24,000 nt of DNA from Candidatus Aquidulcis sp. (GCA_020723345.1 DYJA01000022.1:29308-53307); one strand, 5' to 3'; numbered from the stretch's first letter, positions 1-21,147 are shown. Translations and numbers: made by a program. Notes: generated from the letters alone by a model not told the origin.

Positions 1-1308
1 CTCGCCCACCTCTCCGCCGCGTGGCACGATTTTCCCTCGCGCAAACTCCGCGTCATCGGCGTCACGGGCACCGATGGCAAGACGACGACGTGCCGCCTCA
101 TCGCGTCCGTTCTCGAAAGCGCGAGGCACAGGGTTGGCGCGATTACGACGGTGAGCGCGACGATTGGCGATCAGGAGATTGACACGGGCTTGCACACGAC
201 GACGCCCGACGCGCCCGACGTGCAACGCTATCTCGCGCAGATGGTTGACGCGGGCGCGGAGTACGCCGTGATCGAAGCGACCTCCGAAGGACTCGCGCAG
301 CGCCGCCTCGACGCGGTGGAATTCGACGTCGCGGTCGTCACGAACATTACGCACGAGCATTTGTATTTTCACAAGACCTGGGAAAATTATCGCGACGCGA
401 AAGCAATGCTCTTTCGCGCGCTCGCCACATCGTACCGCAAACCGCGCACCGCGAAGGTCGCCGTGCTGAACGCGGACGATCACGCGCGGGGGGTGTTTGA
501 TTACTTGCGCGCGATTGAGACAGACGAACAGATCATCTATTCGACCAACGACCAACGACGAATGACCGAAGACAATCAATGCTCAGCGGTCAGCGGTCGG
601 CGGTCAGCGGTCAGCATTTTCGCGCGCGCCATCCAACACTCCTCACATGGACTCCGCTTCACCGCCGTCACACCGCACGGCGAATTGGAAATCGAATCGC
701 CGCTGATTGGGCGGTACAATGTGGCGAACATTCTCGCGGCAATCGGCGCGGGGATGGCGCGGCGTGTGCCGTTCGACGCGTTGCGCGACGGGATCGCGCG
801 CGTGCGCGGCGTGAGCGGGCGGATGGAAGTTTTGCAATCCTTCGACTCCGCTCAGGATGCGCCGTTCACGGCGATTGTCGATTTCGCGCACACGCCGAAC
901 GCACTGCAGAACGCGCTGGAAACCGCGCGCGAACTGGCGCACAATCGCGTCATCGTCGTGTTCGGTTGCGCGGGCTTGCGCGACGTTCAAAAACGCGCGC
1001 TGATGGGCGAAATCGCGGGGAAACTTGCGGACAAGATCGTGGTGACCGCCGAAGACCCGCGCACTGAATCGCTTGACGCGATCAACGCGCAAATCGTGGA
1101 GGGCTTGGAACGCGCGGGGCGGCGCGCGCGCGAGGATTATTTCATCGTCGATGATCGCGCGGAGGCAATCGCATTTGCAATTCAAATGGCGCGCGCGGGC
1201 GACGTCGTCATCGTTTGCGGCAAAGGACACGAGCGGTCGATGTGTTTCGGGACGACGGAAATTCCGTGGAGCGATCAAGACGCGGTGCGTGCTGCGCTCA
1301 ATCGATGA
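1..1308 (+). CDS. murE: MurE-type Mur ligase (UDP-N-acetylmuramoyl-tripeptide synthetase), 5'-truncated by the window edge
   Basis: Frame 1 is open from nt 1. Nt 52-93 translate to VIGVTGTDGKTTTC (Mur ligase P-loop). Later motifs TNITHEHLYFH, IGRYNVANILAA, DFAHTPNAL, VFGCAGLRDVQKR and TAEDPRTE fit the MurE middle and C-terminal domains. Stop TGA 1306-1308. The ORF-track start at 151 (GTG) is internal. Confidence 0.9.
   Translation, partial: LAHLSAAWHDFPSRKLRVIGVTGTDGKTTTCRLIASVLESARHRVGAITTVSATIGDQEIDTGLHTTTPDAPDVQRYLAQMVDAGAEYAVIEATSEGLAQRRLDAVEFDVAVVTNITHEHLYFHKTWENYRDAKAMLFRALATSYRKPRTAKVAVLNADDHARGVFDYLRAIETDEQIIYSTNDQRRMTEDNQCSAVSGRRSAVSIFARAIQHSSHGLRFTAVTPHGELEIESPLIGRYNVANILAAIGAGMARRVPFDALRDGIARVRGVSGRMEVLQSFDSAQDAPFTAIVDFAHTPNALQNALETARELAHNRVIVVFGCAGLRDVQKRALMGEIAGKLADKIVVTAEDPRTESLDAINAQIVEGLERAGRRAREDYFIVDDRAEAIAFAIQMARAGDVVIVCGKGHERSMCFGTTEIPWSDQDAVRAALNR
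542..618. repeat. 7-bp-periodic tandem array inside murE (11 units)
   Basis: Read directly: cgaccaa cgaccaa cgacgaa tgaccga agacaat caatgct cagcggt cagcggt cggcggt cagcggt cagcatt. It translates as STNDQRRMTEDNQCSAVSGRRSAVS, in a region where Mur ligases normally have a short loop. Confidence 0.85.
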
Positions 1309-1942
1309 ACGCGCCACAATATTGCTGCCACAACCCGCGCGACATGAGCGCGCTGGCTTCCGCGCTGATTTGCTGATTCAATGCCATCGCAAAAGCGGCG
1401 TCCGAATTCGCGGCGGCGAATTCGCGTTTGACTTGGAGTTGTTTTTCCAATCCCGATTTCTCTGCTGCGACGCACGATTTGTAATCGGTCTTGGCGGCAA
1501 AACGACCGGAGCGTTGATCGCGAATGTGCGTGACTTCGTGGATGAACGTGCCGATGAACGCGACTTGCTTCGCCTCTGGAGTTTGCCCGGCGTCGTCCGG
1601 CGATTGTCCCAGGTGAAACCCGAACGTGATCACGCCGCGTCCCTGCGCGTCGCAGCATTTCGCCGTCGCCGCGCGTCCGTGCGCGCCTTCGCTCAGGTCA
1701 ATCGCGAACACGATTGTCCCGGCTTGGGCGACGTATTGCTGCCAGGCGGGCAATCGAGTTTGGAGCAATTGGAGGTTGGTGCGGAGATAAGCGACATCTT
1801 CTTGGGTGTATCCACCGGCGAAGGTGATGTTATCGAGCACATCGGCGGATGCCGCCGCATCGGTGCGAGTCACGCTGACCAGAACGATGATGCTCAGTGC
1901 GATGAAGAAGAACTTGCCGAGTTTGCTTGCCGTCGTTTGCAT
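1298..1942 (-). CDS. secreted hypothetical protein with HExxH (zincin-like) motif
   Basis: ATG at 1942 is preceded by GGGGAGG (complement of 1949-1955), 6 nt upstream. The N-terminus MQTTASKLGKFFFIALSIIVLVSVTRTDAAASA looks like a signal peptide. There is an internal FIHEVTHIRD motif and non-repetitive composition. The 3' end overlaps murE by 11 bp (convergent). Confidence 0.65.
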   Translation of the reverse strand: MQTTASKLGKFFFIALSIIVLVSVTRTDAAASADVLDNITFAGGYTQEDVAYLRTNLQLLQTRLPAWQQYVAQAGTIVFAIDLSEGAHGRAATAKCCDAQGRGVITFGFHLGQSPDDAGQTPEAKQVAFIGTFIHEVTHIRDQRSGRFAAKTDYKSCVAAEKSGLEKQLQVKREFAAANSDAAFAMALNQQISAEASALMSRGLWQQYCGAFID

Positions 1943-2048
1943 TTTGCGCCTCCCCTTTGGAATTTCCATCCGCAGGATACGGCGCACGCGACAAGCCATC
2001 GGCAAAAATCAGGGGTTTCTATCGTCAAATCGAGGAATATTTTTTTGA

Positions 2049-2085
2049 CGGAAAGAAAAAAACGACCTGCGGTCTGCAGGTCGTT
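2049..2085 (-). terminator. intrinsic terminator downstream of the SARP/STAND gene
   Basis: Perfect 10-bp stem AACGACCTGC (2061-2070) / GCAGGTCGTT (2076-2085) with a 5-nt loop. On the minus strand it is followed by a T-run (complement of GAAAGAAAAAA, 2051-2061). It lies 53 nt after the stop at 2138. Confidence 0.8.
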
Positions 2086-2137
2086 CGTTTTCTTATTTCA
2101 GAACCCCAGTTCCTTCAAGAAAACGGGGCTTTCAGAT

Positions 2138-5100
2138 TCATTTCACATTCTCCAACGCGTACTCAATCGCTTGCTCGCGCGACATGGTTCGTCCTTCCGC
2201 TTGTGCCGCGCTAAAAGTTGCTTCATCCAATTGCGCGCGCGCGATGGCGAAATAGTATTCGCGCTCGGCGGCATCGGCGGGCGTGTAGACACCCTCCCCG
2301 CGCGTTCCAAGCGCATCCACCGCGCCAAACAATCGCGCGGCGCGCGCGAATTGTTTTTCGGCAGTCGCGATAAACGCGAATCCTTCCAGAGCGCCAATAA
2401 TGATGGGGGCACGCGCGGCTTGGCGCGCGAGCGCGAGACTTTCCGTCAACAATTTGCGCGCGCGCGTCACATCGCCGAGCCGCAACACGGTTACGCCGAG
2501 GTTGCCCAGCACAATTGCATTTCCGAGCAACGTGCCCAAGTCCTGTGCAATCGCGAGCGCTTCCTCGTAATATATTTTTGCGCGCGGATAATCCTGTTCC
2601 ACGCGCGCGATTTCGCCCAGGGTAAGCAACGCATTGCTGGCAAGGAGGCGATCCTTGCGCGCGCGAAAAAACTGCAATGCTTCTTCGTTTTGCCGACGCG
2701 CGGTTGCGTAATCGCCGTCGCGAAAATGGACGCGCGCGATGTCGCGATACAACACCATTGCCCAGCGTTGGTCGCCCAATTTGCTGAACGCGGCGTGGCT
2801 CGCTTCAAACGCGGCGCGCGCGGCTTGGCGATTACCTTCGTTCAAAAAGCGATGCCCCCGATAATGCAGAATCGTCGCGCTCATCCATTCATCGCCCAGC
2901 ACTTGCGCGATTGCCCAACTTTCATCTTCGAGAGCTTGCGAGCGTTCAGGTTGCTCTGTCCGGATGACCAAACTCAATTCTGCCAAACCCATCGCGAGTT
3001 GGCGTTGACCGGGCGCGCCGCACGCGCGCGCGATCTCAATCGTTTCTTCCAGATAGGGACGCGCCGCTTTGCCCGATTCGACATTCTCCGCCAACGCCGC
3101 GAGCGTGAATAACGCGCGCGCGCGCGCCAATGTTTTTTCTGCGGCTTCCGGTCGCGCCAAAAGTTTCTGAATCCGCGCGTACGCCTCGCTCGAATACGCC
3201 CGCAAATCCCAGAACAAGCGCAATGCGCCGACGATCTGCAGTCCTTTTTGCGCGCGACCTGGACTCTGCGACCAATCCAGCGCGGCGCGCAAATTATCGT
3301 GTTCGACATCAAGCCGATCCAACCATTCGAATTGTTCCGCGCCCATCAACCTAGGTTCGACGTTTTCCGCAAACGCGACAAAAAAATCGAGATGCCGATC
3401 GCGAATCGTTTCCACTTCGCCCGATTCCAACAAACGATCCCGCGCGTACTGCCGAATCGTCTCCATCAGCCGATAGCGCGTTTCCGCATCGTGCGGTTCG
3501 ACGATCACGAGCGACTTGTCCACCAATCGCGCAAGCAAGTCAAGCACATCGTCCGCGCAAACGGGATCGCAACCGCACACGGCTTGCGCGGCATCGAGCG
3601 TCCATCCGCCCGCGAACACGGACAGGCGGCGTAACAACACGCGCTCTTCTTCGGTCAACAGACTAAAACTCCAATCAATCAGCGCGCGCAATGTTTGCTG
3701 ACGCGGCAGCGCGGTGCGACTGCCACCCGTGAGCAAACGAAAACGGTCGTCCAACCGCGCCGCGATCTGTTCGACGCTCAGCGTTTTCACGCGCACCGCC
3801 GCGAGTTCGAGCGCGAGCGGAATCCCGTCCAGCCGGTGACAGATTTGCGCGACCGCCGTCGCGTTCGCATTCGTCACCGCGAAATTGGACTGGACCGCGA
3901 GCGCGCGATCAATGAACAGACGCACGGCTTCGTACTGCGATAGACTTGCCAAGTCTTGGAGACTTTGCAAGTCTGCGGGCGGCAACGCGAGCGACGGGAC
4001 GCGATACGCCGTTTCGCCGACGATGCCCAACGCTTCGCGGCTGCTTGCGAGAATTTTCAACTGGGGACACGCGCGCAAAAGCGCGTCGGCAAGTTGCGCG
4101 CACGCGTCAATCAAGTGTTCGCAGTTGTCGAGGATGAGCAACAGGTCTTTCGCGCGAAGATAATTTGTGAGGACGGTCGTGATTGGCGTGTTCGGTTGTT
4201 CTTCCAATTTGAACACAGCGGCGATTGTCTGAGGTACGAGCATGGGATCGCTGAGCGCGGCGAGTTCAACCCACCACACGCCATTCTTGAATTGATTCGC
4301 ATTCGCGAGTTCCGTCGCCAGTTGAATCGCGAGCCGCGTCTTGCCCGCGCCGCCCGCGCCCGTCAACGTGAGCAAGCGCGTCTTCCCAACGAGTTCCTTC
4401 AGTTCCCTCAGTTCCCTTGCTCTTCCGATGAAACTCGTCAGCGGCGCGGGCACATTCGTGAACAGCGCCTCGCGCGCTTTGCCGCCCGTCAACGCGGCTT
4501 CGATCTGATCGCGCAGCGCGAGCGTCTCTTTGGATGGCTCGACGCCCAGTTCGTCGCGCAGTTTCTTTTCGCACGCGTCGTACTGCTTCAGCGCGCCGAT
4601 GCGGTCACCGGTTGCCGCGAGGCAAAAGATGATGTGCTGGTACGCTTTCTCGTTCGCGGGATCGCTCGCCAACGCTTTCCGCGCGAATTCAACCGCGCGC
4701 GCGTACTCGCTTTTCGCGCGATGGTGTTGCGCGAGTCGCAAGAGCGCGTCGAGATACAGCGCGCGCAAGCGTTCGCGTTCGGGGAGAATCCAATCGTCGT
4801 AGAAGTCGGAGAGCAAGTCATCATGATAATCTTCGATTTTCGATTTCAGATTTTCGATTTCCAAATCGACAATCGGCAATCGCAAATCGAAAATCTGGCG
4901 CGCGTCGACCCAAAGGGGAAAATCAGGATTGAGTTGTACGGTCTCGCGATCTGCGATGACCACATCGTCGCCAAGTTCTTTGCGGATGGCGGCAAGCGCG
5001 GTGCGGAGCGAGTGACGCGCCTGCTCGTCGGGGACATCGCCCCAGAGGAGCGCGGCAAGTTTTTCGCGAGGATGCGCTTCGGGGAAAAGCGCGAGGTAAG

Positions 5101-5209
5101 CCAGCAGCGATTCGACTTTGCGCGTGGCAAGACGGATCGAACCGGAATCGCTTTCGATCTGAAATGCGCCGAGCAAGTGAAGACGATAGCGCGGAGATTT
5201 GCGCGCCAT
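2138..5209 (-). CDS. SARP/AfsR-family regulator: wHTH + BTAD + NB-ARC (STAND ATPase) + TPR repeats
   Basis: 1023 aa. N-terminal OmpR-type wHTH (LLGAFQIE...LLAYLAL...LWGD). BTAD helices (ERERLRALYLDALLRLA...GALKQYDACEKKLRDELGVEPS). P-loop LTGAGGAGKTRLA, Walker B LLILDNCEH and GIPLALELAA. The C-terminal ~450 aa are TPR-like. AAGGGG SD lies before ATG 5209, and a consensus-like promoter lies upstream. Confidence 0.9.
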   Translation of the reverse strand: MARKSPRYRLHLLGAFQIESDSGSIRLATRKVESLLAYLALFPEAHPREKLAALLWGDVPDEQARHSLRTALAAIRKELGDDVVIADRETVQLNPDFPLWVDARQIFDLRLPIVDLEIENLKSKIEDYHDDLLSDFYDDWILPERERLRALYLDALLRLAQHHRAKSEYARAVEFARKALASDPANEKAYQHIIFCLAATGDRIGALKQYDACEKKLRDELGVEPSKETLALRDQIEAALTGGKAREALFTNVPAPLTSFIGRARELRELKELVGKTRLLTLTGAGGAGKTRLAIQLATELANANQFKNGVWWVELAALSDPMLVPQTIAAVFKLEEQPNTPITTVLTNYLRAKDLLLILDNCEHLIDACAQLADALLRACPQLKILASSREALGIVGETAYRVPSLALPPADLQSLQDLASLSQYEAVRLFIDRALAVQSNFAVTNANATAVAQICHRLDGIPLALELAAVRVKTLSVEQIAARLDDRFRLLTGGSRTALPRQQTLRALIDWSFSLLTEEERVLLRRLSVFAGGWTLDAAQAVCGCDPVCADDVLDLLARLVDKSLVIVEPHDAETRYRLMETIRQYARDRLLESGEVETIRDRHLDFFVAFAENVEPRLMGAEQFEWLDRLDVEHDNLRAALDWSQSPGRAQKGLQIVGALRLFWDLRAYSSEAYARIQKLLARPEAAEKTLARARALFTLAALAENVESGKAARPYLEETIEIARACGAPGQRQLAMGLAELSLVIRTEQPERSQALEDESWAIAQVLGDEWMSATILHYRGHRFLNEGNRQAARAAFEASHAAFSKLGDQRWAMVLYRDIARVHFRDGDYATARRQNEEALQFFRARKDRLLASNALLTLGEIARVEQDYPRAKIYYEEALAIAQDLGTLLGNAIVLGNLGVTVLRLGDVTRARKLLTESLALARQAARAPIIIGALEGFAFIATAEKQFARAARLFGAVDALGTRGEGVYTPADAAEREYYFAIARAQLDEATFSAAQAEGRTMSREQAIEYALENVK
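4831..4893. repeat. palindromic heptamer array (9 units, 63 bp) inside the SARP gene
   Basis: cttcgat tttcgat ttcagat tttcgat ttccaaa tcgacaa tcggcaa tcgcaaa tcgaaaa. The left units are the reverse complement of the right units, and about 24 of 30 positions pair around the centre at 4861/4862. It encodes FDLRLPIVDLEIENLKSKIE between the wHTH and BTAD domains. Confidence 0.85.
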
Positions 5210-5266
5210 TGGACGCCCCTTGGCGAAAAAGACGTTTTCGTCGAATCCAAACTGCGTGCGGCAAGA

Positions 5267-5295
5267 ATCTTAGCACCGATGCGCCGCGATGTCAA
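5267..5295 (-). promoter_or_regulatory. sigma70-type promoter for the SARP/STAND gene
   Basis: The minus strand reads TTGACA (complement of 5290-5295), 17 nt, TAAGAT (complement of 5267-5272), with TGc just upstream of the -10 (extended -10). Confidence 0.6.
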
Positions 5296-5312
5296 AAGTC
5301 AGGCGCTCCCGA

Positions 5313-5342
5313 TTCGCCATTCGCTCTGACCTGTGCTAAAAT
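5313..5342 (+). promoter_or_regulatory. candidate mutL promoter giving a leaderless or near-leaderless mRNA
   Basis: TTCGCC (5313-5318), 18 nt, TGcTAAAAT (-10 hexamer 5337-5342). The -10 ends 7 nt before the mutL ATG (5350), and there is no SD. Confidence 0.4.
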
Positions 5343-5349
5343 ATTGCCG

Positions 5350-7122
5350 ATGCCAATTCACATTTTGCCCGACGACCTCGCCTCGAAAATCGCGGCGGGC
5401 GAAGTGATCGAACGCCCCGCGTCGGTCGTCAAAGAGTTGCTCGAAAATTCGATTGATGCGGGCGCGCGCGAAATCAAGATCGAAATTCGCGGCGGCGGTC
5501 AGCGCTTGATCCGCGTCGCGGACGACGGCGGCGGCATTCCCACAGCCGAGGTCGCGACCGCGTTCGCGCGTCACGCGACGAGCAAACTCAATTCGGTGGA
5601 CGACTTGTTCAAGCTCCAGACGCTCGGTTTTCGCGGTGAAGCGCTGCCGTCGATTGCGGCGGTCTCGCGCGTCACACTCATCACCCGCGCGCGCGGCGAA
5701 GCATCGGGGACGCAGATGCGCGTCGACGGCGGCAAGATCGTCGAACAGCGCGCGCAAGGCGCGCCACAAGGTACGATTGTCACCGTCGAAGATTTGTTTC
5801 GCCACGTGCCCGCGCGCTTGAAATTCCTCAAGACTCCGGCAACCGAAGCCGGACGCATCGCCGATCTGATCAACGCGTACGCGCTTGCGTATCCCGCGCT
5901 GCGGTTCTCACTCGTGAATGACGATCGCTTGCTGTTTCAATCGCCCGGCACCGGGAAAATGTTCGACGTATTGGTGAAGGTGTTTGGGATCGAAATCGCG
6001 AATCAGATGTTGGAGGTTGGAAATTGGAAATTGGAAAATACGGCGGAAGGCGCGTCCAGTGTTCAACCTCTAACTTTTAACCTCCAACCTCCAACCTCCA
6101 ACATCCAGGTTTCCGGTTTCATTTCTCCGCCCGCCGTCAATCGCTCGTCGCGCAAATACATGCTCTTTTTCGTCAACCATCGCTGGGTGCAAGATCGCAC
6201 GTTGCAGCACGCGGTCATCGAAGCGTACCACACCGCGCTGATGGTCGGACGCGCGCCGATTGTCGCGCTCGACATCGCGCTGCCGCCGGACACGGTGGAC
6301 GTGAACGTGCATCCGACAAAAAGCGAAGTGCGTTTCCGCGACACGAGCGCGGTTTTTCGCGCGGTGCAGCACACCGCCCGCGCCGCGCTCACCGCGCACG
6401 CGCCGATTCCGACGATCAGCGCTTCCGCGCCCCCTTCGACTATCGCTCAGGGCGCGCCGCGCCGCGCCGAAACCCAACTCGCGATTGACTTGCACCGCCC
6501 AATTCCAACTTCCAATCTCCAATCTCCTGATCGCCCGATTGCCCAATTGCCCATGTTGCGCGTCCTCGGTCAAATCCTTTCGACGTACATCATTGCCGAA
6601 GGACCCGACGGCTTGTATTTGATCGATCAACATTCGGCGCACGAGCGCGTGCTGTACGAGCAATTGATGGCGGAGCGCGCCAGCGCGCAAGTCGTCGCGC
6701 AAGAATTGATCGATCCGCTCGCGCTGCAACTCACGCCCGCGCAGCAAGCCGCGCTCGAAACGCATCGCGACGCGCTCGCGTCGGTCGGCTTCAAGTTCGA
6801 GGATTTCGGCGCGCAGACGATTTTGCTGCGCGCGGTACCGGCGGTGATGAAAAAGAGCGATCCGCGCGACGCGCTCGCGCACATTCTCGACGAGTTGGAA
6901 CAAGGCGAAACGCCGCTCGAAAAATCGGCAGAAGCGCGTTTGATTTCGAGCGTATGCAAAAGCATCGCGGTGAAAGGCGGACAAGTGCTATCGCTCGAAG
7001 AAATGCGCGAACTCGTGCGGCGCTTGGAGCAGACGACCGCGCCGCGGACTTGTCCGCACGGCAGACCGACGATGATTCAATTGAACATCGGACAATTGGA
7101 AAGAGAGTTCGGCAGAAAGTAA
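5350..7122 (+). CDS. mutL: DNA mismatch repair protein MutL
   Basis: MPIHILPDDLASKIAAGEVIERPASVVKELLENSIDAGA (GHKL ATPase N-terminus), DDGGGI, GFRGEAL, VNHRWV, VDVNVHPTKSEVRF. The C-terminal dimerisation/endonuclease region has LYLIDQHSAHERVLYE and CPHGRP. The ORF-track start 5164 is an upstream extension without homology. Confidence 0.93.
   Translation: MPIHILPDDLASKIAAGEVIERPASVVKELLENSIDAGAREIKIEIRGGGQRLIRVADDGGGIPTAEVATAFARHATSKLNSVDDLFKLQTLGFRGEALPSIAAVSRVTLITRARGEASGTQMRVDGGKIVEQRAQGAPQGTIVTVEDLFRHVPARLKFLKTPATEAGRIADLINAYALAYPALRFSLVNDDRLLFQSPGTGKMFDVLVKVFGIEIANQMLEVGNWKLENTAEGASSVQPLTFNLQPPTSNIQVSGFISPPAVNRSSRKYMLFFVNHRWVQDRTLQHAVIEAYHTALMVGRAPIVALDIALPPDTVDVNVHPTKSEVRFRDTSAVFRAVQHTARAALTAHAPIPTISASAPPSTIAQGAPRRAETQLAIDLHRPIPTSNLQSPDRPIAQLPMLRVLGQILSTYIIAEGPDGLYLIDQHSAHERVLYEQLMAERASAQVVAQELIDPLALQLTPAQQAALETHRDALASVGFKFEDFGAQTILLRAVPAVMKKSDPRDALAHILDELEQGETPLEKSAEARLISSVCKSIAVKGGQVLSLEEMRELVRRLEQTTAPRTCPHGRPTMIQLNIGQLEREFGRK
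6006..6106. repeat. ~100-bp heptamer-built palindrome inside mutL
   Basis: Left arm gttggag gttggaa attggaa attggaa. Right arm aacctct aactttt aacctcc aacctcc aacctcc aacatcc. There is a perfect 16-bp basal stem, 6006-6021 / 6090-6105, with further imperfect pairing inward. It encodes GNWKLENTAEGASSVQPLTFNLQPPTSNIQ. Confidence 0.9.
6500..6555. repeat. heptamer array (8 units) in the MutL inter-domain linker
   Basis: caattcc aacttcc aatctcc aatctcc tgatcgc ccgattg cccaatt gcccatg. It encodes PIPTSNLQSPDRPIAQLPM. Confidence 0.8.
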
Positions 7123-7123
7123 T

Positions 7124-7422: not shown

Positions 7423-7436
7423 AAAGGAAGTACGCG

Positions 7437-7917: not shown

Positions 7918-7927
7918 GGTTGGCGCA

Positions 7928-12782: not shown

Positions 12783-12787
12783 GCGAG

Positions 12788-13439: not shown

Positions 13440-15656
13440 ATGCCTGAGACGAAACCCGTGAGCAAGCGGGATGAATCGAAAAAAACAAAACCGAGTGAAA
13501 CCAAAACGACTGCCGCACCGGCGCACAAGCCCACGACGCCAAAGCCCGCGCATCCCGAACGCGCGGCGTCGTCTAAACCGATGCCCAAACCAGTCGCACC
13601 TTCGCCAGTGAAACCCGGCGCGCCAACCAGACCGACTCAACATCCCAGTTCGCACGGCGCGTCCGCACACAGACCGACTTCCCGTCCAGTGGCTCTCAGC
13701 GCGAAACCCGGCGCGCCGATGACACGACCAGCGGCACCGCGTCCCGGTGCACCTAGACACGGTATGCCCGTCGCCAAACCCGGCGCGGTTCCGGTGCGAC
13801 CGGCGACTCGCCCAGGTACGCCGCCGCGTCCCGCCGGGGTAGTTGCGCCCAGACCGGCGCCGGTTGCGCCGCCACCGCCGCCACCCAAGCCGCCCGTCGA
13901 ATTGCCGGACAATTTGACGGTGCGCGATCTCGCCGCCACGCTCAAAGTTGGACCGATCGACATCATCAAAAAATTGATGGCGAGCGGCATCATGGCGAAC
14001 ATCAATCAGCCGATTGATTTCGACACCGCCGCGCTCGTCGCGGGCGAACTCGGTTTTGAAGTGATCGAAAAAAAGCCGGAGATCGTCGAGCCGGAAGTTT
14101 CGACGCTGACGAGCATTCCAAAGAAACACGAGTACACGACAGCCGAACTCGCCAATCTCGTACTGCGTCCGCCGGTCGTCACCGTGATGGGACACGTCGA
14201 TCACGGCAAGACCTCGATCCTCGACGCGATCCGGCACGCCGACGTCGCGGGCGGCGAAGCCGGAGGCATCACGCAACACATCGGCGCGTACCAGATTTTG
14301 CACGATGCGAAACGCATCACCTTTCTCGATACGCCCGGGCACGAAGCGTTCACCGAAATGCGCGCGCGCGGCGCGCAAGCGACCGATATCGCGATCATCG
14401 TCATCGCGGCGGACGACGGCGTGATGCCGCAGACGCGCGAAGCGATTGATCACGCGCGCGCGGCGAAAGTACCGATCATCATCGCGCTGAACAAGATTGA
14501 CAAAGCGAACGCGAACCCCGAACGCGTCAAGCAGCAACTTTCGGACATGGGGCTGGCGGTGTACGGTGGCTCGGATGAAGTGACCGTCGTCCCGATGTCG
14601 GCGAAGCAAAAAATCGGCGTGGACGATCTGCTGGAAAATATTCTGCTCGTCTCGGAACTTGCCGATCTGCGCGCGAATCCGAAAAAGCCGGCGCGCGGCA
14701 TCGTCATCGAATCGAAACTCGACAAACAGCAAGGTCCAATGGCAACGCTGCTCGTGCAAGACGGTATGCTCCACGTCGGCGAGTTTGTTTTGATCGGCGG
14801 CGTGTGGGGCAAAATCCGCGCGATGTTCAACGATCACGGCGTCGCGGTCAAAGACGCGGGTCCCGCAGATCCGGTCGCGGTGACTGGTCTGTCCGACGTG
14901 CCGCCCGCGGGAGAAAAATTCGTCGTGCTGGAAGAGGAACGCGACGCGCGCAATCGCGCGGAAGCGCGCGCGCTGGCGAAACGCCAAGCGGAACAAAAAT
15001 CGACGCGCGCGGTTTCGCTCAACGATTTGTTCGCGCAATTCCAAGCCGGCAACGTCAAAGAACTCAATCTCATCGTCAAAGCCGACGTGCAAGGTTCGTT
15101 GGAACCGATTGTTTCGTCGCTCGAGAAACTGGGCTATGAAAAAATCAAAGTCAAGATCATCCATCAAGGCATCGGCACGATCACGCGGTCGGACGTGATG
15201 CTCGCGATGGCGTCACAAGGTATCGTGATCGGTTTTAGCGTCGGCGTCGAAACGGCGGCGGAATCGCTCGCCGAGAGCGAAGGGATTGACATTCGGCAGT
15301 ATAATATCATTTATAAATTGATCGAGGATATCGACAAGGCGCTCAAAGGGATGCTGGAGCCGGTGTTCGAAGATCGGCTGATCGGGCGCGGTCAAGTGCT
15401 GCAACTCTTCCGCGTGAAAAAGAGCGTCGTGGCGGGCTTGCGGATCACGCAGGGCAAAGCGGTCCGCAGCGGCACCGTGCGCGTGATGCGCGGCGCGAAC
15501 GAAGTGTTCAAGGGCACGATTGCCGCGCTCAAGCGTTTCCAGGACGACGTGCGCGAAGTCGCGGAAGGATACGAATGTGGCTTGTCGCTGGAGAAATTCA
15601 CCGATTTTCACGACGGCGATCAAGTCGAGTTTTATCAGAAAGTGAAAGTGAGTTGA
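13440..15656 (+). CDS. infB: translation initiation factor IF-2
   Basis: SD GGAAAGGAGAG before ATG 13440. Pro/Ala-rich N-terminus. GTPase motifs [22 protein letters not shown] and NKIDK. C-terminal domains follow to the stop at 15656. Confidence 0.97.
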
Positions 15657-15660: not shown

Positions 15661-16023
15661 ATGGCTGGTTACCGCGCCGCGCGCGCGAGCCAAAGAATCC
15701 AACAAGAGATCAGCACGCTGTTCGAGCGCGAGGTGAGCGACCCGCGCCTAGCGGACGTCAACGTGACGCACGTCGAGGTGAGCGGCGATTTGCGCGTCGC
15801 CAAGATTTTCGTCGCGCCGATCACCGGCGACGACGACGCGACGCGCGCGATGCTGGACGCGCTCGACCGCGCGACCGGTTTCTTCCGGCGTCGCATCGCG
15901 CAGAGTTTGGATTTGCGCATCGCGCCGGAGATCCGTTTTCTGCTGGATCGCTCCATCGAAAAAGGCGAACGCTTTCTCCGCGCGCTGGAGCAAGTGCGCG
16001 CGTCGGAACAGAGAGACGAATAA
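15661..16023 (+). CDS. rbfA: ribosome-binding factor A
   Basis: 120 aa. RIQQEISTLFEREVSDPRL...VTHVEVSGDLRVAKIFV fits RbfA, and the position after infB is conserved. Confidence 0.95.
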   Translation: MAGYRAARASQRIQQEISTLFEREVSDPRLADVNVTHVEVSGDLRVAKIFVAPITGDDDATRAMLDALDRATGFFRRRIAQSLDLRIAPEIRFLLDRSIEKGERFLRALEQVRASEQRDE

Positions 16024-16031: not shown

Positions 16032-17006
16032 ATGGGAACGACACTCACATTCGAGCAAGCCGTCGAACTGTTTCGACGCCACAATCAAATTTTCGTCGCG
16101 GCGCACATCATGCCGGACGGTGACTGCATCGGCTCCGCGCTCGGCTTGACGTGGGCGCTGCGAAAAATCGGCAAGACGGTGACGGTGACGTGTCCCGATC
16201 ACGTTTCGAACACGTTCAAGTTTTTGCCGGGCTTTGAAGAGCTCGCGCCCAAGACGCCGACCGGCGAAGAGTTCCTGGTTTTCGTGGACGGCAGCTCGGC
16301 GGATCGCTTTGGCGCGGCGTACGATCCGGCGAAATTCAACGGCAGACCGGTGCTCGTCATCGATCATCACGTCACCAACGATAATTTCGCGCCGCTCAAT
16401 TTCGTGGATCGGCGCGTCGCGTCCACCGCCGAAATCATTTTTCGTTTCGTCAACGCGTTCGGCGTATCGTTCGACCGCAACCTCGCGCAGTGTTTGCTGA
16501 CCGGCATCGTCACCGACACGCTCGGCTTTCGCACCGCGAACACGACGGTCGACACGCTCAAGACCGTGACCGCGTTGATGGAAGCGGGCGGCTCGATTCC
16601 CGAAATCATCGAACATTCCTTCAACCAAGTTCCGCTGGCGAGTTTGCGATTGCGCGGCAAGATTTTCAGCAGCGCGATGCTCGACGGCGTGATTCTGTGG
16701 GCGGAGGTGCCGTTCAAGTTGCAGCGCGAACTGGGGTTGAACGGCAACGGCACCGGCGGCATCATCAATCAATTGCTCAGCGTCGAGGACGCGAAGATCG
16801 CCGCGCTGTTCACCGAAAAAGAAAACGGCAAAATCGACATTGGCTTGCGTTCGCGCGTCGGCTACGATGTCGCGGCAATCGCCGCGCGGCTCGGCGGCGG
16901 CGGACACAAACAGGCGTCGGGCGCGTTGCTGGACGGACCGCTGGCGGCGGCGCGGGAACGCGTGCTTGCCGAGATCAAAAAGGCGATCAGTCAATCGGGC
17001 AACTAG
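16032..17006 (+). CDS. nrnA: DHH/DHHA1 phosphoesterase (NrnA-like oligoribonuclease / pAp phosphatase)
   Basis: HIMPDGDCIGSALGL, LVIDHHVTN, GIVTDTLGF and GGGGHKQASGA motifs. The last 7 codons (ISQSGN*) are supplied by the downstream repeat element. Confidence 0.88.
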   Translation: MGTTLTFEQAVELFRRHNQIFVAAHIMPDGDCIGSALGLTWALRKIGKTVTVTCPDHVSNTFKFLPGFEELAPKTPTGEEFLVFVDGSSADRFGAAYDPAKFNGRPVLVIDHHVTNDNFAPLNFVDRRVASTAEIIFRFVNAFGVSFDRNLAQCLLTGIVTDTLGFRTANTTVDTLKTVTALMEAGGSIPEIIEHSFNQVPLASLRLRGKIFSSAMLDGVILWAEVPFKLQRELGLNGNGTGGIINQLLSVEDAKIAALFTEKENGKIDIGLRSRVGYDVAAIAARLGGGGHKQASGALLDGPLAAARERVLAEIKKAISQSGN

Positions 17007-17066
17007 GCAATCAGTCAATCAGGCGATCAGGCGACCGATTGCCCGATTGACTGATTGACCAATCAC
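16983..17066. repeat. heptamer-word palindromic element spanning the nrnA stop and the truB upstream region
   Basis: Perfect 15-bp inverted repeat CAGTCAATCGGGCAA (16988-17002) / TTGCCCGATTGACTG (17039-17053), extendable by about 4 bp. The text is built of GATTGAC / CAATCAG / GGCGATC words with 7-nt phasing. Confidence 0.88.
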
Positions 17067-17151
17067 CATGTCCCAATGTTCCATCTGCGGCGCGCCGCAC
17101 GCGTGCCCCTTTCAACTTACGCCGCCACTTGCGCCTGCCCCGCCGCGCGGA

Positions 17152-18039
17152 ATGCACGGCATCTTCAACGTGAACAAGCCCGCGGGCTTGACCTCGCACC
17201 AAGTCGTCCACGCGATCCGCAAATCCTCCGGTCTCGCGCGCGTTGGTCACGCCGGCACGCTCGATCCGCTGGCGACCGGCGTGCTGCTCGTTTGCGTCGG
17301 GCAAGCGGTACGCGTGACGGAATATTTGATCGACCACGATAAAAAATATCGCGCGCGCGTCCGACTTGGAATTGAAACGGACACGTACGACGCGGAAGGC
17401 GCAGTCGTCGCGCAGCGCGCGGTGACCGCGACGCGCGAGCAGGTCGAAACCGCGCTCGCGAGTTTCGTCGGCAAGCAATCGCAAATGCCGCCCGCGTACT
17501 CGGCGATCAAAAAAGACGGCGTGCGCCTGTACGATCTCGCGCGGCGCGGCGTTCAAGTCGAACGGACGCCGCGCGCCGTCGAAATTTTCTCGATCAACGC
17601 GCGCGAGATCGCGCTGCCCGACGTCGAGTTCGACGTGCATTGCAGCAAGGGGACGTACATCCGCTCGCTCGCGCACGACCTCGGCGAAAAACTGGGTTGC
17701 GGCGCGACGCTGACCGCGCTGACGCGCACGGCGAGCGGACGATTCGCGCTCGACGACGCGGTTTCGCTCGATCAACTGCGCGCCGCCTTTGACAAAAAGT
17801 GCGCGGCGCATTATTTGAATCCGCTCGACGAAGCGCTGCTGCAATTTCAAGCCGTCGTCGTCAACGCCGAAAGCGCGCGGCGCGTCACGCTCGGCAATAG
17901 TTTGGACTGCGAACGCGAGTACGCCACGCCGCTGCTCCGCGCTTACGCGCCAAGCGGACAGTGTATCGCGCTGCTGGAGCGCGGCAGGCGAGCGGGAGAG
18001 TGGAAACCGCAAAAAGTTTTCGGGATTCAAGATTCGTAG
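17152..18039 (+). CDS. truB: tRNA pseudouridine(55) synthase TruB
   Basis: MHGIFNVNKPAGLTSHQVV is the canonical N-terminus, and GHAGTLDPLATGVLLVCVG is the catalytic Asp motif. The ORF-track start 17068 adds 28 non-homologous residues and remains possible. Confidence 0.92.
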   Translation: MHGIFNVNKPAGLTSHQVVHAIRKSSGLARVGHAGTLDPLATGVLLVCVGQAVRVTEYLIDHDKKYRARVRLGIETDTYDAEGAVVAQRAVTATREQVETALASFVGKQSQMPPAYSAIKKDGVRLYDLARRGVQVERTPRAVEIFSINAREIALPDVEFDVHCSKGTYIRSLAHDLGEKLGCGATLTALTRTASGRFALDDAVSLDQLRAAFDKKCAAHYLNPLDEALLQFQAVVVNAESARRVTLGNSLDCEREYATPLLRAYAPSGQCIALLERGRRAGEWKPQKVFGIQDS

Positions 18040-18047
18040 ATTCGAAC

Positions 18048-19127
18048 ATGAAACAACCATCTTGGAATAATCTGCCCCTCGTGGATTCGCATCTCGACCT
18101 CGCAGAAAATGTGACACTGTTCGGACGTGACCTGACCCTGAGCGCGGCTGAAATCAGAACGATAGAAAAACGCGCCACGCGGCAAGCGACCGTTTCGCTC
18201 CCCGAACTCGAGCGCGGTGGCATCGCCGTGGTATTTGCGACAGTGACCGCAGGTTTTTTGGCGGCGGACGTTGGCGAGAACTTTGAACCGCGCTCGGCAA
18301 TTTACCATACACCTGAGGAAGCCGAAACGCAGGCGCTGACCCAGATTGCGTTGTACGAAGCGTGGGAAAAGCAAGGACGCGTGCGACTGCTCAAATCGGT
18401 CAATGACTTGAATCATCACTTGCAATTGTGGCAGAATGATCGTAAACCGGGTCTGGTTATGCTCATGGAAGGCGCAGACCCAATCGTTCGCGTCCGTGAC
18501 CTATCGCAGTGGTGGCAACGCGGTCTTCGGATGATCGGGCTTTCGTTTGGCGACACGAAATATGGAACTGGAGTGTGCGGAGGTAATTCAACGTTCAAGC
18601 AGGGTGGCTTGACGGCGGAGGGTTTTGCATTGCTTGAGCAGATGGCAGAACTGGGTTTTGTCTGGGATATTTCACATCTGGCTGAAGAGGGAATATGGCA
18701 AGGGCTGGACCGCAAGTTTCCGCGCGTGTGCGCGTCACATGCGAACGCGCAAGCCCTGACTCCAACCGACCGACATTTGAGCGACGACGTCATTCGCGCC
18801 ATCGCGGAACGGAATGGAGTGATGGGTCTCGTCCTGTACAACGGTTTTCTCGAACCGCGTTGGAAACAAGACACATCGATCGCGGTCACGCTGGACGACC
18901 ACCTGCGACGACAAGCGAACTATGTGGCGAATCTCGCTGGTTGGGAGCACGTCGGCATCGGATCTGATTTGGATGGCGGCTTTGGTCTTGAAGAGAGTCC
19001 CGCAGAAATCGATACAGTGGCTGATTTGCGCAAAGTAGGGTCCGTCGTACCGGCTGAGGTTCGCGAGCAAGTGCTGAGCGCGAACTGGCTAAATTTTCTT
19101 CGATCTGCGCTACCGCAAACCGCATAA
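18048..19127 (+). CDS. peptidase M19 family membrane-dipeptidase homologue
   Basis: LVDSHLDLAEN, LMEGADPI, GLRMIGLSFGD, GFVWDISHL, CASHANA and HVGIGSDLDGGFG follow the M19 metal-ligand pattern. ATG 18048 is 9 nt after the truB stop. Confidence 0.85.
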   Translation: MKQPSWNNLPLVDSHLDLAENVTLFGRDLTLSAAEIRTIEKRATRQATVSLPELERGGIAVVFATVTAGFLAADVGENFEPRSAIYHTPEEAETQALTQIALYEAWEKQGRVRLLKSVNDLNHHLQLWQNDRKPGLVMLMEGADPIVRVRDLSQWWQRGLRMIGLSFGDTKYGTGVCGGNSTFKQGGLTAEGFALLEQMAELGFVWDISHLAEEGIWQGLDRKFPRVCASHANAQALTPTDRHLSDDVIRAIAERNGVMGLVLYNGFLEPRWKQDTSIAVTLDDHLRRQANYVANLAGWEHVGIGSDLDGGFGLEESPAEIDTVADLRKVGSVVPAEVREQVLSANWLNFLRSALPQTA

Positions 19128-19135: not shown

Positions 19136-20074
19136 ATGGAAATTATCCGCGACATCAACACAGTTCATCTCAATCGCCCCACCGTCCTGACCATCGGCTC
19201 GTTCGATGGAATTCATCGCGGGCATCAATATCTCGTGAGCCGCGTCGTCACGCGCGCGAAAGAGATCGGCGCGGACAGCGCGCTGATCACGCTGCACCCG
19301 CATCCCAAAGTCGTCTTGCGCGCGACTTTACCGCTGCGCTATCTGAGTACGATTGAAGAGCGCTTGGACTGGCTCGTGCCGCTCGGCTTGGATTACGTCG
19401 TCGTGTTCCCGTTCAGTTTGGAAACGTCGCAGATCCGCGCGCGCGATTTTGTGCAGTTGCTTGTGGATCGTCTGCGCCTCGTCGAAATCATTTGCGGCAA
19501 AGATTTCGCGCTCGGCTACAAACGCGAAGGCACTGTCGAATTCTTGCGCGCGCTCGGACAGGAAAAAGGTTTCGCCGTGACGGTCGTCGAGCCGCAAGCG
19601 TTCGAGGGGCAAATCGTTTCGAGCACGCGCGTGCGCGATCTGATCGCGCGAGGCGAAATGGACGAGGCGACGCGTTTGCTCGGACGCTATCCATCAGTGC
19701 GCGGGCGCGTGATCGAAGGCGACAAGCGCGGGCGCACGCTCGGCTTTCCGACCGCGAATCTCGCGATTGCGGAGCGCCGGTTGATCCCCGCCGACGGCAT
19801 TTACGCGGCGCGCGTGAGAATCGGCGATCAGTGGTTCGGCGGCGCGGCGAACATCGGCATCCGTCCGACGTTCGACAAGGGGCAGCGGTTAGTCGAGGTG
19901 TACGTTTTGGATTTCGACGGCGATCTGTACGATCAGGTGATCGAAGTACAATTCGTCGAGCGGCTGCGCGCGGAAATAAAATTTGAGAGTGCGAACGCGC
20001 TCGTCGAGCAGATGCAGCGCGATGTCGCGGAAACGCGGCGCGTGCTCGCGCGAGAGAATCACGATGCCAAGTGA
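19136..20074 (+). CDS. ribF: bifunctional riboflavin kinase / FMN adenylyltransferase
   Basis: LTIGSFDGIHRGHQYL, GFPTANL and the GIRPTF...VEVYVLDFDGDLYDQ motifs. Confidence 0.95.
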   Translation: MEIIRDINTVHLNRPTVLTIGSFDGIHRGHQYLVSRVVTRAKEIGADSALITLHPHPKVVLRATLPLRYLSTIEERLDWLVPLGLDYVVVFPFSLETSQIRARDFVQLLVDRLRLVEIICGKDFALGYKREGTVEFLRALGQEKGFAVTVVEPQAFEGQIVSSTRVRDLIARGEMDEATRLLGRYPSVRGRVIEGDKRGRTLGFPTANLAIAERRLIPADGIYAARVRIGDQWFGGAANIGIRPTFDKGQRLVEVYVLDFDGDLYDQVIEVQFVERLRAEIKFESANALVEQMQRDVAETRRVLARENHDAK

Positions 20075-20561
20075 AATCAATCTGCGCTACAAATTAACCG
20101 AAGACGAATTGCTGAGTATGACTCGCATGTCCGTGATGCGCGCGTGGTATCTGCGCCTCACGTTCATTCTTGCGCTCGTCGTCTTTCTCGGCGGCGGTGT
20201 GGCGGTGCTGTTGGGAATCGAGGGAATCGAACCGTTCATTCTTGCATCGGGCGCAATCGTGCTCTACTTTTCGTTGCTCTATTACAACCCGCTCACGCGT
20301 TGGCGCGTTCATCGCGAGCCAAAATATTTTGTCGAGCACGCGTGGCGTTTTGACGAAGATGGCGTCAGCAGCAAAACCGAATTTGCCGAATCGAAAAACG
20401 TATGGAGCGCGTACCCCAAAGTGAAAGAGAACGCGCGATTCTTTATGCTCTACGTCGACGCGAATCGATTCGCGCCGATTCCCAAACGCGCCTTTACTAA
20501 CCGCGAGCAAGCCGATCATTTTCGGGAATTGCTCAAGCGCAAGATCGCGCGCTGGGAGTAG
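20064..20561 (+). CDS. YcxB-like membrane protein (two TM helices + C-terminal domain)
   Basis: ATG 20064 overlaps the ribF end by 11 nt. Two hydrophobic helices (LRLTFILALVVFLGGGVAVLL; FILASGAIVLYFSLLYY), then a FFMLYVDANRFAPIPKRAF pattern typical of the YcxB family (by eye). Confidence 0.65.
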   Translation: MPSEINLRYKLTEDELLSMTRMSVMRAWYLRLTFILALVVFLGGGVAVLLGIEGIEPFILASGAIVLYFSLLYYNPLTRWRVHREPKYFVEHAWRFDEDGVSSKTEFAESKNVWSAYPKVKENARFFMLYVDANRFAPIPKRAFTNREQADHFRELLKRKIARWE

Positions 20562-20606
20562 GGGCGAAGCACACTTGCCCTGGCGGGACGCAAGTGTGCT
20601 TCGCCC
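20562..20606 (+). terminator. strong hairpin immediately after the YcxB-like gene (terminator candidate, weak U-tract)
   Basis: Perfect 17-bp stem GGGCGAAGCACACTTGC (20562-20578) / GCAAGTGTGCTTCGCCC (20590-20606), 11-nt loop, followed by TTCACTT. Confidence 0.55.
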
Positions 20607-20616: not shown

Positions 20617-20656
20617 TAGACGGACGCCGCGAATTGCCGTATAATATTCGCGGCGT
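20617..20656 (+). promoter_or_regulatory. archease-rtcB promoter with its -10 box inside an 11-bp inverted repeat
   Basis: TAGACG (20617-20622), 17 nt, TATAAT (20640-20645). Inverted repeat ACGCCGCGAAT (20624-20634) / ATTCGCGGCGT (20646-20656) brackets the -10. No SD precedes ATG 20664. Confidence 0.5.
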
Positions 20657-20663
20657 TAAATTT

Positions 20664-21077
20664 ATGGCGATAAAACGCTTTGAGGAAATTCCGCATACCG
20701 CCGATTGGTCGTTCCGCGCGTTCGGCGAAGATTTGCGCGCGTTGTTCGAGAACGCCGCGCACGCGCTCTTTGCGTTGCAAGGGGCGCGCGCGCGCGAACA
20801 CGCGCCTGAAATCGCGCGCGTCGTCGCGGTCAGCGCAATCGATTACGAAGCGCTCCTCGTCAACTGGCTGACCGAATTGTTGTGGCTGCAAGAATCGCAG
20901 CGCGAGACGTACGCGCGCTTTCACATCGAAGCACTCTCGCCGACAGGATTGCGCGCGCAAGTTTTCGGCGCGCCGCTCGCGCATCTCGACAAGATCATCA
21001 AAGCAGTGACGTATCACAATTTGGAAATCAAACAAACGGCGGAGGGATGGCAGGCAACCATTGTTGTAGATGTGTGA
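20664..21077 (+). CDS. archease (RtcB activator/chaperone)
   Basis: 137 aa. FEEIPHTADWSFRAFG at the N-terminus and IKAVTYHNLEI near the C-terminus are archease signatures. It lies directly upstream of rtcB. Confidence 0.9.
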   Translation: MAIKRFEEIPHTADWSFRAFGEDLRALFENAAHALFALQGARAREHAPEIARVVAVSAIDYEALLVNWLTELLWLQESQRETYARFHIEALSPTGLRAQVFGAPLAHLDKIIKAVTYHNLEIKQTAEGWQATIVVDV

Positions 21078-21080
21078 GTC

Positions 21081-21147
21081 GAGTATTCAGTGTTCAGTAT
21101 TCAGTGTTCGGTATCCAGTGTTCAACAACCCGGACACTGAATACTGG
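21081..21147. repeat. heptamer array + inverted arm hairpin between archease and rtcB
   Basis: gagtatt cagtgtt cagtatt cagtgtt cggtatc cagtgtt ... The 13-bp perfect stem CAGTATTCAGTGT (21095-21107) / ACACTGAATACTG (21134-21146) is extendable to about 17 bp. The rtcB SD GGAGG (21146-21150) touches the 3' arm. Confidence 0.88.

Follow-up and report, generated by a model that had tools for sequence, protein, structure and literature searches.

Tandem arrays of seven- and eight-nucleotide words are spread over a 24-kb stretch of DNA deposited as Candidatus Aquidulcis sp. (GCA_020723345.1, DYJA01000022.1:29308-53307), the whole of which was analysed and is called the window. It runs from murE through mutL, nusA, infB and truB to rtcB and beyond, gene identities being taken from Pfam scans. 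Eight of the 12 array loci lie in spacers or untranslated regions (UTRs) and four in coding sequences, all of the latter in linkers or loops, and the non-coding arrays fill short spacers almost fully (nusA-ylxR, nrnA-truB, archease-rtcB). The arrays are real. They extend an already described kind of bacterial microsatellite to a new host lineage and do not constitute a novel type of element.

As judged from its protein matches, the window is part of an uncultured Anaerolineae-type Chloroflexota genome: the nearest MutL and RibF homologs carry labels of Anaerolineales, Anaerolineae or Chloroflexota metagenome-assembled genomes (MAGs), and for IF2 the best-matching species representatives belong to the Anaerolineae (55-56% identity). 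Syntenic contigs were obtained via MutL homologs (L082 and L083 at 88% identity, L084 and L085 at 85%, L086 at 81%), and L090-L092 through RibF homologs. Arrays were called by Tandem Repeats Finder (TRF), and hairpins are described by their DNA-fold z-scores. The arrays of the window are as follows.

542-569 and 583-617, plus strand: (CGACCAA) x3.7 and (TCAGCGG) x4.7, in frame in murE; TRF 542-567 and 583-615, unit split
4829-4895, minus-strand BTAD/NB-ARC/TPR gene: hairpin of (TTCGATT) x4.1 and (AAATCGA) x4.7 with a 2-nt gap, in frame; TRF 4832-4860 and 4863-4895
6006-6107, mutL: hairpin of (TTGGAAA/TTGGAGG) x4 ... (CAACCTC) x6.3, in frame; TRF 6017-6037 and 6064-6107
6499-6553, mutL: direct arrays, (CCAATCT) x4.3 and then an octamer (CGATTGCC-type) x2.6-3, in frame; TRF 6499-6527 and 6533
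7124-7151: (GGATTTA/GGATTTG) x3.4, beginning 2 nt past the mutL stop codon; TRF 7127-7150, unit split
10738-10849: direct ACCGTTC-type words, 15.3 copies, 5' of the DUF218 gene (minus strand); TRF 10741-10847
10997-11033, plus strand: hairpin of (GAGATTN) x3.6 / AATCTCC in the nusA 5' UTR; TRF 10998-11022; z -4.4 (10994-11036)
12589-12784, plus strand: single hairpin of 8-nt period in the nusA-ylxR spacer; arms 12589-12631 and 12753-12784
16981-17064, plus strand: hairpin of 8-nt period, (AGGCAATC-type) x6.5 / (GACCGATT-type) x3.5, at the nrnA-truB junction; TRF 16981 and 17033
18024-18047, plus strand: marginal array GATTCAA GATTCGT A GATTCGA, spanning the truB stop and ending at the ATG of the M19 dipeptidase gene (18048)
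21081-21147, plus strand: hairpin of (AGTATTC AGTGTTC) x3 ... GGACACTGAATACTG, filling the archease-rtcB spacer; TRF 21082-21124

A preliminary description of the window had listed these loci as period-7 arrays. TRF finds nearly all of them, but 16981-17064, 12589/12753 and 6528-6553 proved octameric and 18024 marginal. Hairpins made of a word and its reverse complement had also been described; five strong ones were recovered (4828-4897, 6004-6108, 10994-11036, 16981-17068 and 21079-21150, with z from -4.2 to -5.6), whereas that at 540-620 is weak and 10738-10849 and 6497-6556 are direct arrays only. The four placements within coding sequences (murE, the BTAD/NB-ARC gene and mutL twice) and the six contacts with a stop codon, a start codon or a Shine-Dalgarno (SD) sequence were borne out.

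The murE array (542-617) encodes STNDQRRMTEDNQCSAVSGRRSAVS, a loop of the MurE central domain that forms an insertion with respect to solved MurE chains; its arms are only partly complementary, and the hairpin at 540-620 has a z of -1.8. In the BTAD/NB-ARC/TPR gene the array has 32-nt arms that are 84% complementary (4828-4897, z -4.2) and corresponds to a linker N-terminal to the BTAD domain (residues ~105-126, the domain starting at residue 123). The first mutL array lies in the loop between the ATPase and transducer domains (linker 1), where it encodes GNWKLEN...QPLTFNLQPPTSN and folds with a z of -5.0 (6004-6108). The second sits in the disordered linker between the N- and C-terminal domains (linker 2) and has no hairpin (6497-6556, z 0.3), the period being 8 nt from 6528 to 6553.

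Among the non-coding arrays, that at 10738-10849 shows higher-order periods of 21 and 28 nt and no hairpin (z ~0). It lies between a promoter-like TTGACA-17-TATGAT on the minus strand (10888-10860) and the DUF218 start, and probably forms the 5' UTR of that gene. The hairpin at 10997-11033 is located between a conserved T-tailed stem (10954-10988) and the SD and GTG start (11047) of nusA. This stem (GAAAAGTGGG...CCCACTTTTC), which with its T-rich tail is kept in the nusA leader of all relatives, may be an attenuator for nusA autoregulation. At the nrnA-truB junction, the hairpin includes the nrnA-like stop (17004-17006) and ends 3 nt short of the truB ATG (17068); its 17-nt arms are 100% complementary (16981-17068, z -5.6). 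The marginal array at 18024-18047 consists of three GATTC words with 7- and 8-nt spacing, below the TRF threshold. The 3' arm of the hairpin at 21081-21147 adjoins the rtcB SD (GGAGG; 21079-21150, z -4.6).

Apart from a 121-bp insert, the nusA-ylxR spacer consists of hairpin throughout, and without the insert it folds at -32.9 kcal/mol (z -6.3). The two stretches described earlier as heptamer arrays, 12589-12634 and 12751-12782, are the halves of one hairpin with an 8-nt period, split by the insert. In L083 this hairpin is uninterrupted and two octamers longer than in the window. The insert (12632-12752), which resembles a miniature inverted-repeat transposable element (MITE), occupies the centre of the hairpin and is missing from L083. 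It has 13-bp terminal inverted repeats (TAGACTTTATCGG and CCGATAATGTCTA), an internal 23-nt palindrome and a 9-bp direct repeat (CTGATTGAC) on each side. An element inside one array, and the fact that a 7-nt duplication within a period-7 array is exactly one added unit, could suggest that a transposon with 7-8-bp target duplications has repeatedly inserted and excised, each cycle leaving one unit behind as its footprint. This seems very improbable to us: the MITE-like element has a 9-bp flanking repeat within an array of 8-nt period, inverted arms, higher-order periods of 14-28 nt and 15-copy arrays are left unexplained, and no such transposon was seen.

The genes of the window are listed below.

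to 1308, plus strand: murE, running off the left window end
2138-5209, minus strand: BTAD/NB-ARC/TPR regulator
5350-7122, plus strand: mutL
7201-8329, plus strand: small open reading frames (ORFs)
8391-10091, minus strand: DUF6909 gene
10102 to ~10719, minus strand: DUF218 gene, start by homology with L083
11047-12588, plus strand: nusA, GTG start at 11047
12788-13108, plus strand: ylxR
13440-15656, plus strand: infB
15661-16023, plus strand: rbfA
16032-17006, plus strand: DHH/nrnA-like gene
17068-18039, plus strand: truB
18048-19127, plus strand: M19 dipeptidase
19136-20074, plus strand: ribF
match within ORF 19983-20561, plus strand: YcxB-like ORF, limits not fixed
20634-21077, plus strand: archease
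21156-22607, plus strand: rtcB
22730-23443, plus strand: membrane protein

Enriched periods, fixed sites and changing units

Strict period-7 self-match runs were set against 200 third-order Markov simulations, and five were found in the window where 0.01 were expected; at other periods, runs appeared only for 8 and 14. The window and three syntenic relatives (four loci, 70 kb) were then taken as a clade sample, with 1.29 Mb of other bacterial infB loci as control, these being distant genomes returned by an IF2 scan dominated by the universal GTPase motif. The clade has 55.6 period-7 arrays per 100 kb against 2.5 in the controls (~22x) and 21.4 period-8 arrays against 2.0 (~10x), while periods 6 and 9 are enriched only ~2x; the counts behind these densities are 39, 15, 10 and 7 arrays for periods 7, 8, 6 and 9, respectively. 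Every syntenic relative shows the excess at periods 7 and 8, as does a stretch of L082 outside the syntenic region. Long arrays show additional higher-order periods of 14, 21 and 28 nt by TRF, and the GC content of the arrays is 49%, against a background of 58.5%.

Most of 80 unrelated infB loci contain 0-3 period-7 arrays, and the three organisms reached via the M19 gene have few. Arrays of a word followed by its reverse complement were also found in an Anaerolineae MAG (L002) and in three Acidobacteriota MAGs (L062, L073 and L078). Set against the array-poor majority of the controls, these cases indicate that the trait is lineage-specific yet present in more than one phylum. L078 holds a nested hairpin at 1983-2162, in the order W1 W2 loop W2' W1', and L062, L073 and L002 have 7/8-nt hairpin arrays at several sites.

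At every junction examined the flanks are conserved and arrays are present in relatives, with other copy numbers and related or different words. The comparison of syntenic junctions proposed in the preliminary description thus recovered arrays with unit-number polymorphism at the same sites, and not conserved non-repetitive sequence. One Logan contig, which matches window 1109-10805 at 100% identity, stops within the 15-copy array, a break of the kind that assembly or sequencing artefacts might produce. This explanation can be regarded as refuted, since the same sites bear arrays in independent NCBI, ENA, JGI and Logan assemblies; within genes, moreover, the arrays are in frame.

Two junctions lack an array. 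After mutL, L084 has only a 14-nt spacer, while L083 and L086 have GATTTnn hairpins there; the second case is the DUF6909-DUF218 spacer of the window, only 10 nt long (10091-10102), where L082 (12319-12410), L084, L090 and L091 carry a hairpin of the CCAATGAG/TTGGCTCA family. The latter hairpin, 80 nt long in L082 and ~45-105 nt in the others, lies between the DUF6909 gene's SD and the DUF218 stop codon, and appears to have been cleanly lost in the window. As the spacer collapses wherever the array is missing, the array is the spacer.

Between conserved flanks, lengths differ by whole units: 21 nt (three units) in mutL linker 1 and 16 nt (two octamers) after nusA. Upstream of the DUF218 gene the difference is ~70 nt, or ~10 units, relatives having 5-7 units of related words against the 15.3 copies of the window. 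The hairpin at 10997 is longer in orthologs, with related words and identical flanks. Between truB and ribF, L090 and L091 have full GATTT-word hairpins, of which the array at 18024-18047 is probably a remnant.

All length differences between orthologs within coding sequences are multiples of 3. The murE array region measures 137, 140 and 131 nt across orthologs, which have different words at the site; mutL linker 1 measures 161, 182, 182 and 164 nt, and linker 2 measures 116, 143, 152 and 146 nt, the orthologous words in linker 2 being (CCGACCG)n, (CTCCAAT)n and (AACTATCC)n. When MutL proteins are aligned, columns ~250-330 (the linker 1 array region) are hypervariable, and the arrays read as peptides of the GNWKLE-, TSNLQ-, PTADYRP- and SNYPT-type, which grow, shrink or disappear among homologs down to ~72% identity. 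With two in-frame period-7/8 arrays, a change of one unit in either direction would frameshift this mismatch-repair gene, and the mutL arrays might in principle work as a mutator switch. No mutL allele with a frameshift was seen among the homologs inspected.

Other repeats occur at the same places. Some MutL homologs (P0008, P0010, P0039 and P0055) have inserted peptides in mutL linker 1 (IASEAKQSP...LAMT, SAAKNL...RSAQGDR), and L086 has another dispersed palindrome (GTCATTTCGAG...CTCGAAATGAC) after mutL, at 2460-2540; together these observations indicate that a second kind of repeat uses the same sites. L086 also carries two 13-copy heptamer arrays (TAGTGGT and CCTGCCT) between infB and rbfA (10779-10986), and L084 a ~78-nt tandem duplication between the nrnA-like gene and truB (21385-21560).

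Hairpin arms, shared words and origin of the arrays

The two arms of the hairpin arrays co-vary. In L086, left arms pair with the right arms of the same genome at -22 and -44 kcal/mol but with those from other genomes at only -7 to -9 and -15 to -20 kcal/mol; the preference is seen in mutL linker 1 and after nusA. When folding of the two strands was compared for 17 hairpins, which are not independent cases, the sense strand was better in nine. It was slightly better in 8 of 10 intergenic hairpins, while the antisense strand was better in all six within coding sequences, so that there is no consistent signal at the RNA level.

The hairpins stand exactly between the stop codon and the next SD or start at nusA-ylxR, nrnA-truB and archease-rtcB, and hairpin potential is kept while words change. 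Together with the slight sense-strand advantage in spacers, this could mean that the arrays are kept for a function, as RNA hairpins (3'-end protection, processing, translational coupling) or as rows of words bound by a protein, slippage providing the raw material. The protein would have a 7-8-nt footprint, as a cold-shock-domain protein might; CspB binding of heptamer units has been reported, in work cited in PMC4679880. We hold function to be an unlikely reason for their maintenance, though one to be kept in view. The same arrays occur in coding linkers, in 5' UTRs and as structure-free direct arrays, and some orthologous hairpins have decayed or are absent with no visible consequence. The antisense preference in coding sequences speaks against it as well, and an intrinsic-terminator scan gave no more sites than shuffles, none of the arrays having a T-tail on the gene strand; an Rfam search of the window at gathering thresholds gave no match.

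The words themselves are drawn from a limited vocabulary, which recurs at non-orthologous junctions and in other genomes. The TTGGCTCA/CCAATGAG family was found at four junction classes: DUF6909-DUF218 in L082, L084 and L090, after nusA in L086, nrnA-truB in L092, and L082 41-75. The AACTATCC family occupies nrnA-truB in both L084 and L090 and was also found in linker 2 of the L084 mutL and after the L090 nusA. The CAGTATT/CAGTGTT (CAGTRTT) family occurs at the archease-rtcB junction of the window and, in L084, after nusA, and the GATTTnn family at many sites. Pairs of words from different junction classes with at most one mismatch were counted against a null in which letters are shuffled within each word, giving 95 heptamer pairs where 33 +/- 5 were expected and 24 octamer pairs where 1.6 +/- 1.3 were expected. 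Orthologous replicates inflate these counts; by our own count, no fewer than nine independent cases are left in which identical words stand at different junctions. The GATT/AATC core that many arrays had been said to share is weakly supported, AATC occurring in 8 of 26 junction classes where 5.5 were expected; the more specific CCAAT (six classes against 1.8) and GATTT (five against 1.6) are each enriched ~3x. Sharing of cores such as CAGT or GTTSAC across phyla was also considered and rejected, being at chance level given the number of pairs compared. The earlier statement that only the period and the architecture are conserved is not supported either, since the period is 7 or 8 and differs between genomes at nrnA-truB, while the words form a limited vocabulary.

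Identical word families at different junctions (TTGGCTCA in four classes, AACTATCC in three, CAGTATT/CAGTGTT in two, GATTTnn in many), as well as the presence/absence polymorphism at junctions and the four families found at nrnA-truB across six genomes, are what would be seen if the arrays were non-autonomous mobile hairpin elements, REPIN- or MITE-like, in which several families, each defined by its word, would be mobilised in trans by an enzyme from another locus and unit number would change afterwards in place. Such mobility is improbable in our view. The hairpins compared share no non-periodic part and no conserved loop or terminus, loops differing even among orthologs, and MITE hallmarks (terminal inverted repeats, target-site duplication, a fixed interior) are found in none of the arrays. 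The only sequence with these hallmarks is the unrelated 121-bp insert, a MITE-like element quite unlike the arrays. No transposase family, RAYT included, was matched among the window ORFs scanned, which cover only 24 kb of the genome. Moreover, in most orthologous arrays the words have drifted by degrees, in line with descent in place. The preliminary description was right that the arrays are not one fixed REP or MITE sequence, their loops and flanks being unrelated.

The reading we favour, with a probability of about 0.6, is that the arrays are lineage-typical heptamer/octamer microsatellites, grown by slippage, mirrored through hairpins and filtered by selection, and that they belong to the known class of bacterial heptanucleotide long simple sequence repeats (SSRs), akin to the short tandemly repeated repetitive (STRR) sequences of cyanobacteria. 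Each locus would be a long-lived, self-perpetuating seed whose site persists while unit number and word turn over. Replication slippage by one or several units would make arrays grow, shrink and homogenise, which would account for the unit-step differences, higher-order periods and homogenised words. The inverted partner array would arise and stay complementary through strand switching between the arms, intrastrand and templated by the hairpin, a process akin to quasi-palindrome correction; this would explain why many loci are hairpins with a 7- or 8-nt stem period, mirrored order and co-varying arms. We infer both events from known bacterial mutational mechanisms. E. coli MutS recognises loops of roughly 4 nt or fewer, and slippage loops of 7-8 nt, exceeding this range, would escape mismatch repair. 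Selection would act as a filter only: arrays would be tolerated in short operon spacers and UTRs, and within genes only in flexible linkers or loops with the total length kept a multiple of 3. Intercistronic hairpins might find a secondary use in mRNA, and a role in mRNA stability or translational coupling is possible.

This slippage account is favoured by the specificity of the excess for periods 7 and 8, and slippage is the process proposed in the literature for the same class. The generative, slippage-type process suggested in the preliminary description agrees with the unit-number differences at the same sites in relatives; templated extension from a fixed template, also suggested there, is unlikely because the words are many, and the results speak neither for nor against a period-reading protein.

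Several results weigh against slippage as the whole explanation. L084 and L085 differ by 13 single-nucleotide polymorphisms in 21.8 kb (99.94% identity) and show zero indels in 17 period-7/8 arrays called by TRF; L082 and L083 are identical, and the sample of near-identical contigs is small. Slippage would then be slow, and the arrays are not hypermutable switches. At ~12% divergence nearly all arrays have changed; as a rough bracket, an array turns over one to two orders of magnitude faster than a single site acquires a point substitution, a pace quite unlike that of contingency loci. Some arm pairs have decayed and are no longer complementary (murE in L084, the nusA 5' region in L086). Nothing in the slippage account explains the preference for 7-8 over 5 or 10 nt, the only idea offered for heptamers being that 7 nt is the DNA segment held by the polymerase (PMC4679880, PMC4692102). 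At the nrnA-truB junction, where relatives have GATTTAN, AACTATCC or TTGGCTCA arrays, six related genomes display four word families and both periods, which has the appearance of replacement rather than drift. Finally, the recurrence of words at non-orthologous junctions above shuffled expectation makes pure in-situ slippage insufficient. Something more is called for, be it copying from one array to another at an ectopic site, a birth process with sequence bias, or mobility, and we keep these options open.

A further proposal is a sequence-biased copy-and-paste process that would actively seed, replace and mirror arrays at junctions, the arrays then being a distinct class of self-propagating "hairpin microsatellites" and not passive products of slippage. 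Strand switching templated by hairpins at ectopic sites could be its agent, as could a novel enzyme or a protein reading a 7-8-nt period, and the process would be common to this Anaerolineae clade and some Acidobacteriota. We regard this proposal as unlikely.

Neighbouring insertions and other palindromes

The BTAD gene that carries one of the arrays encodes a SARP-type regulator (Streptomyces antibiotic regulatory protein). A link between it and the arrays was judged coincidental, since the repeats bound by SARPs are spaced ~11 bp apart and are not known to be tandem. SARPs are described as binding heptamer direct repeats.

In the window murE and mutL are separated by ~4 kb (1309-5349) containing a 214-aa ORF and the BTAD/NB-ARC/TPR gene, whereas in L082 (8007-8098) they are neighbours with a 90-nt spacer; L084 has a different and larger insert at this place. 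The M19 dipeptidase gene (18048-19127) stands between truB and ribF in the window only, truB being directly followed by ribF in L090, L091 and L092. Since L090 and L091 have a GATTT-word hairpin between truB and ribF, the M19 insertion took place at an array-bearing junction. M19 homologs at 84% identity lie in unrelated contexts in array-poor genomes, which suggests that the gene was acquired by transfer. As a route to relatives it was abandoned, the contigs reached being non-syntenic and the gene not tracking the clade.

Two palindromes of the window are not periodic: one with a perfect 17-bp stem (GGGCGAAGCACACTTGC) upstream of the archease gene (20562-20606), and a double palindrome (TTATGCGGAA/TTCCGCATAA) 3' of rtcB (22688-22763). 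From 23000 to 24000 the GC content falls to 0.43, and an ORF starting at 23618 runs off the window end with only a faint DUF4365 match; this end looks like foreign DNA.

Known repeat classes and significance

Bacterial heptamer repeats have been on record since 1990. According to Mrazek, Guo and Shah (2007), as quoted in PMC4679880 and PMC4692102, no class of long SSR is more abundant in many bacterial genomes than the heptanucleotide one. Long SSRs are characterised there by tandem units of 5-11 nt, mostly intergenic positions, polymerase slippage and a lineage-specific distribution. The arrays described here likewise show a tandem excess, dominance of 7 nt, positions mostly intergenic or constrained by frame, and variable unit number. 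By the quoted account, Anaerolineae were not part of that survey; in the present arrays, octamers form a prominent second class, and inverted pairs make up most loci. Such pairs have a counterpart in Xanthomonas, where ~185 GGGAATC arrays include 70-75 cases of convergent inverted pairs able to form stem-loops, their sites being conserved between species, their length and sequence variable, and their single or inverted-pair type usually preserved (PMC4692102). Convergent arrays of a word and its reverse complement, of a type conserved in relatives, are found here as well. Xanthomonas GGGAATC and Nostoc GGGGAYT are each one G-rich, quadruplex-capable word (PMC4692102), whereas the present arrays use many words richer in A and T. 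They also differ from both in that they often occupy coding linkers in frame.

The STRR1-3 heptamers are not the dominant words here, and the host is a Chloroflexota bacterium and not a heterocystous cyanobacterium. The likeness lies in genome-dispersed tandem heptamers with a few word families shared by related strains, as described for cyanobacterial STRRs, of which Calothrix PCC 7601 has three, in the account cited in PMC4692102. Chloroflexus aurantiacus has 22 satellites derived from (GATAGRA)n, and Burkholderia has several microsatellite families, each with a different unit of 6-8 nt (PMC6749651). The former are likewise heptamer-derived arrays scattered in a Chloroflexi genome, but of a single word, and neither hairpin pairing nor copies in coding sequences are described in PMC6749651. 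TAACTGA direct repeats of marine Beggiatoaceae, cyanobacteria and Bacteroidetes, like some of the present arrays, lie just 5' of start codons, with a few in ORFs, but consist of one word and are almost never inverted (a single case); Microcystis mixes several heptamers (PMC4679880). A lack of precedent or host context can therefore not be maintained for these arrays: the host is a Chloroflexota, heptamers are known in Chloroflexus and many other bacteria, and inverted pairs in Xanthomonas. Our literature searches returned no report of heptamer or tandem repeats in Anaerolineae or Acidobacteria.

REP, BIME and REPIN elements are also extragenic palindromes in operon spacers, but they form fixed-sequence families, REPs being tied to RAYT transposases, whereas only periodic words are common to the present arrays; an all-against-all comparison shows no conserved palindrome of 20-40 nt. 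Rickettsia palindromic elements resemble the in-frame palindromic insertions in murE, the BTAD gene and mutL linker 1, and here the copies do not align into a single family of ~100-150 bp. The hallmark of phase-variable contingency SSRs, unit-number differences between near-identical strains, was not observed in L084 and L085.

Within this known class, the present arrays give unusually clear evidence that the two arms co-vary, that protein linkers (two of them in mutL) are occupied in frame, and that loci draw on a common stock of words. In practice, the arrays break short-read assemblies at gene junctions and add low-complexity peptides (GNWKLE, TSNLQ, PTADYRP) to housekeeping proteins including MutL, which can mislead annotation and alignment. 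For the biology of the family, the clade constitutes a dense, graded natural series, with many metagenome relatives at 70-90% protein identity bearing arrays at the same junctions, and thus the birth, word replacement, arm co-variation and loss of such arrays can be traced site by site.

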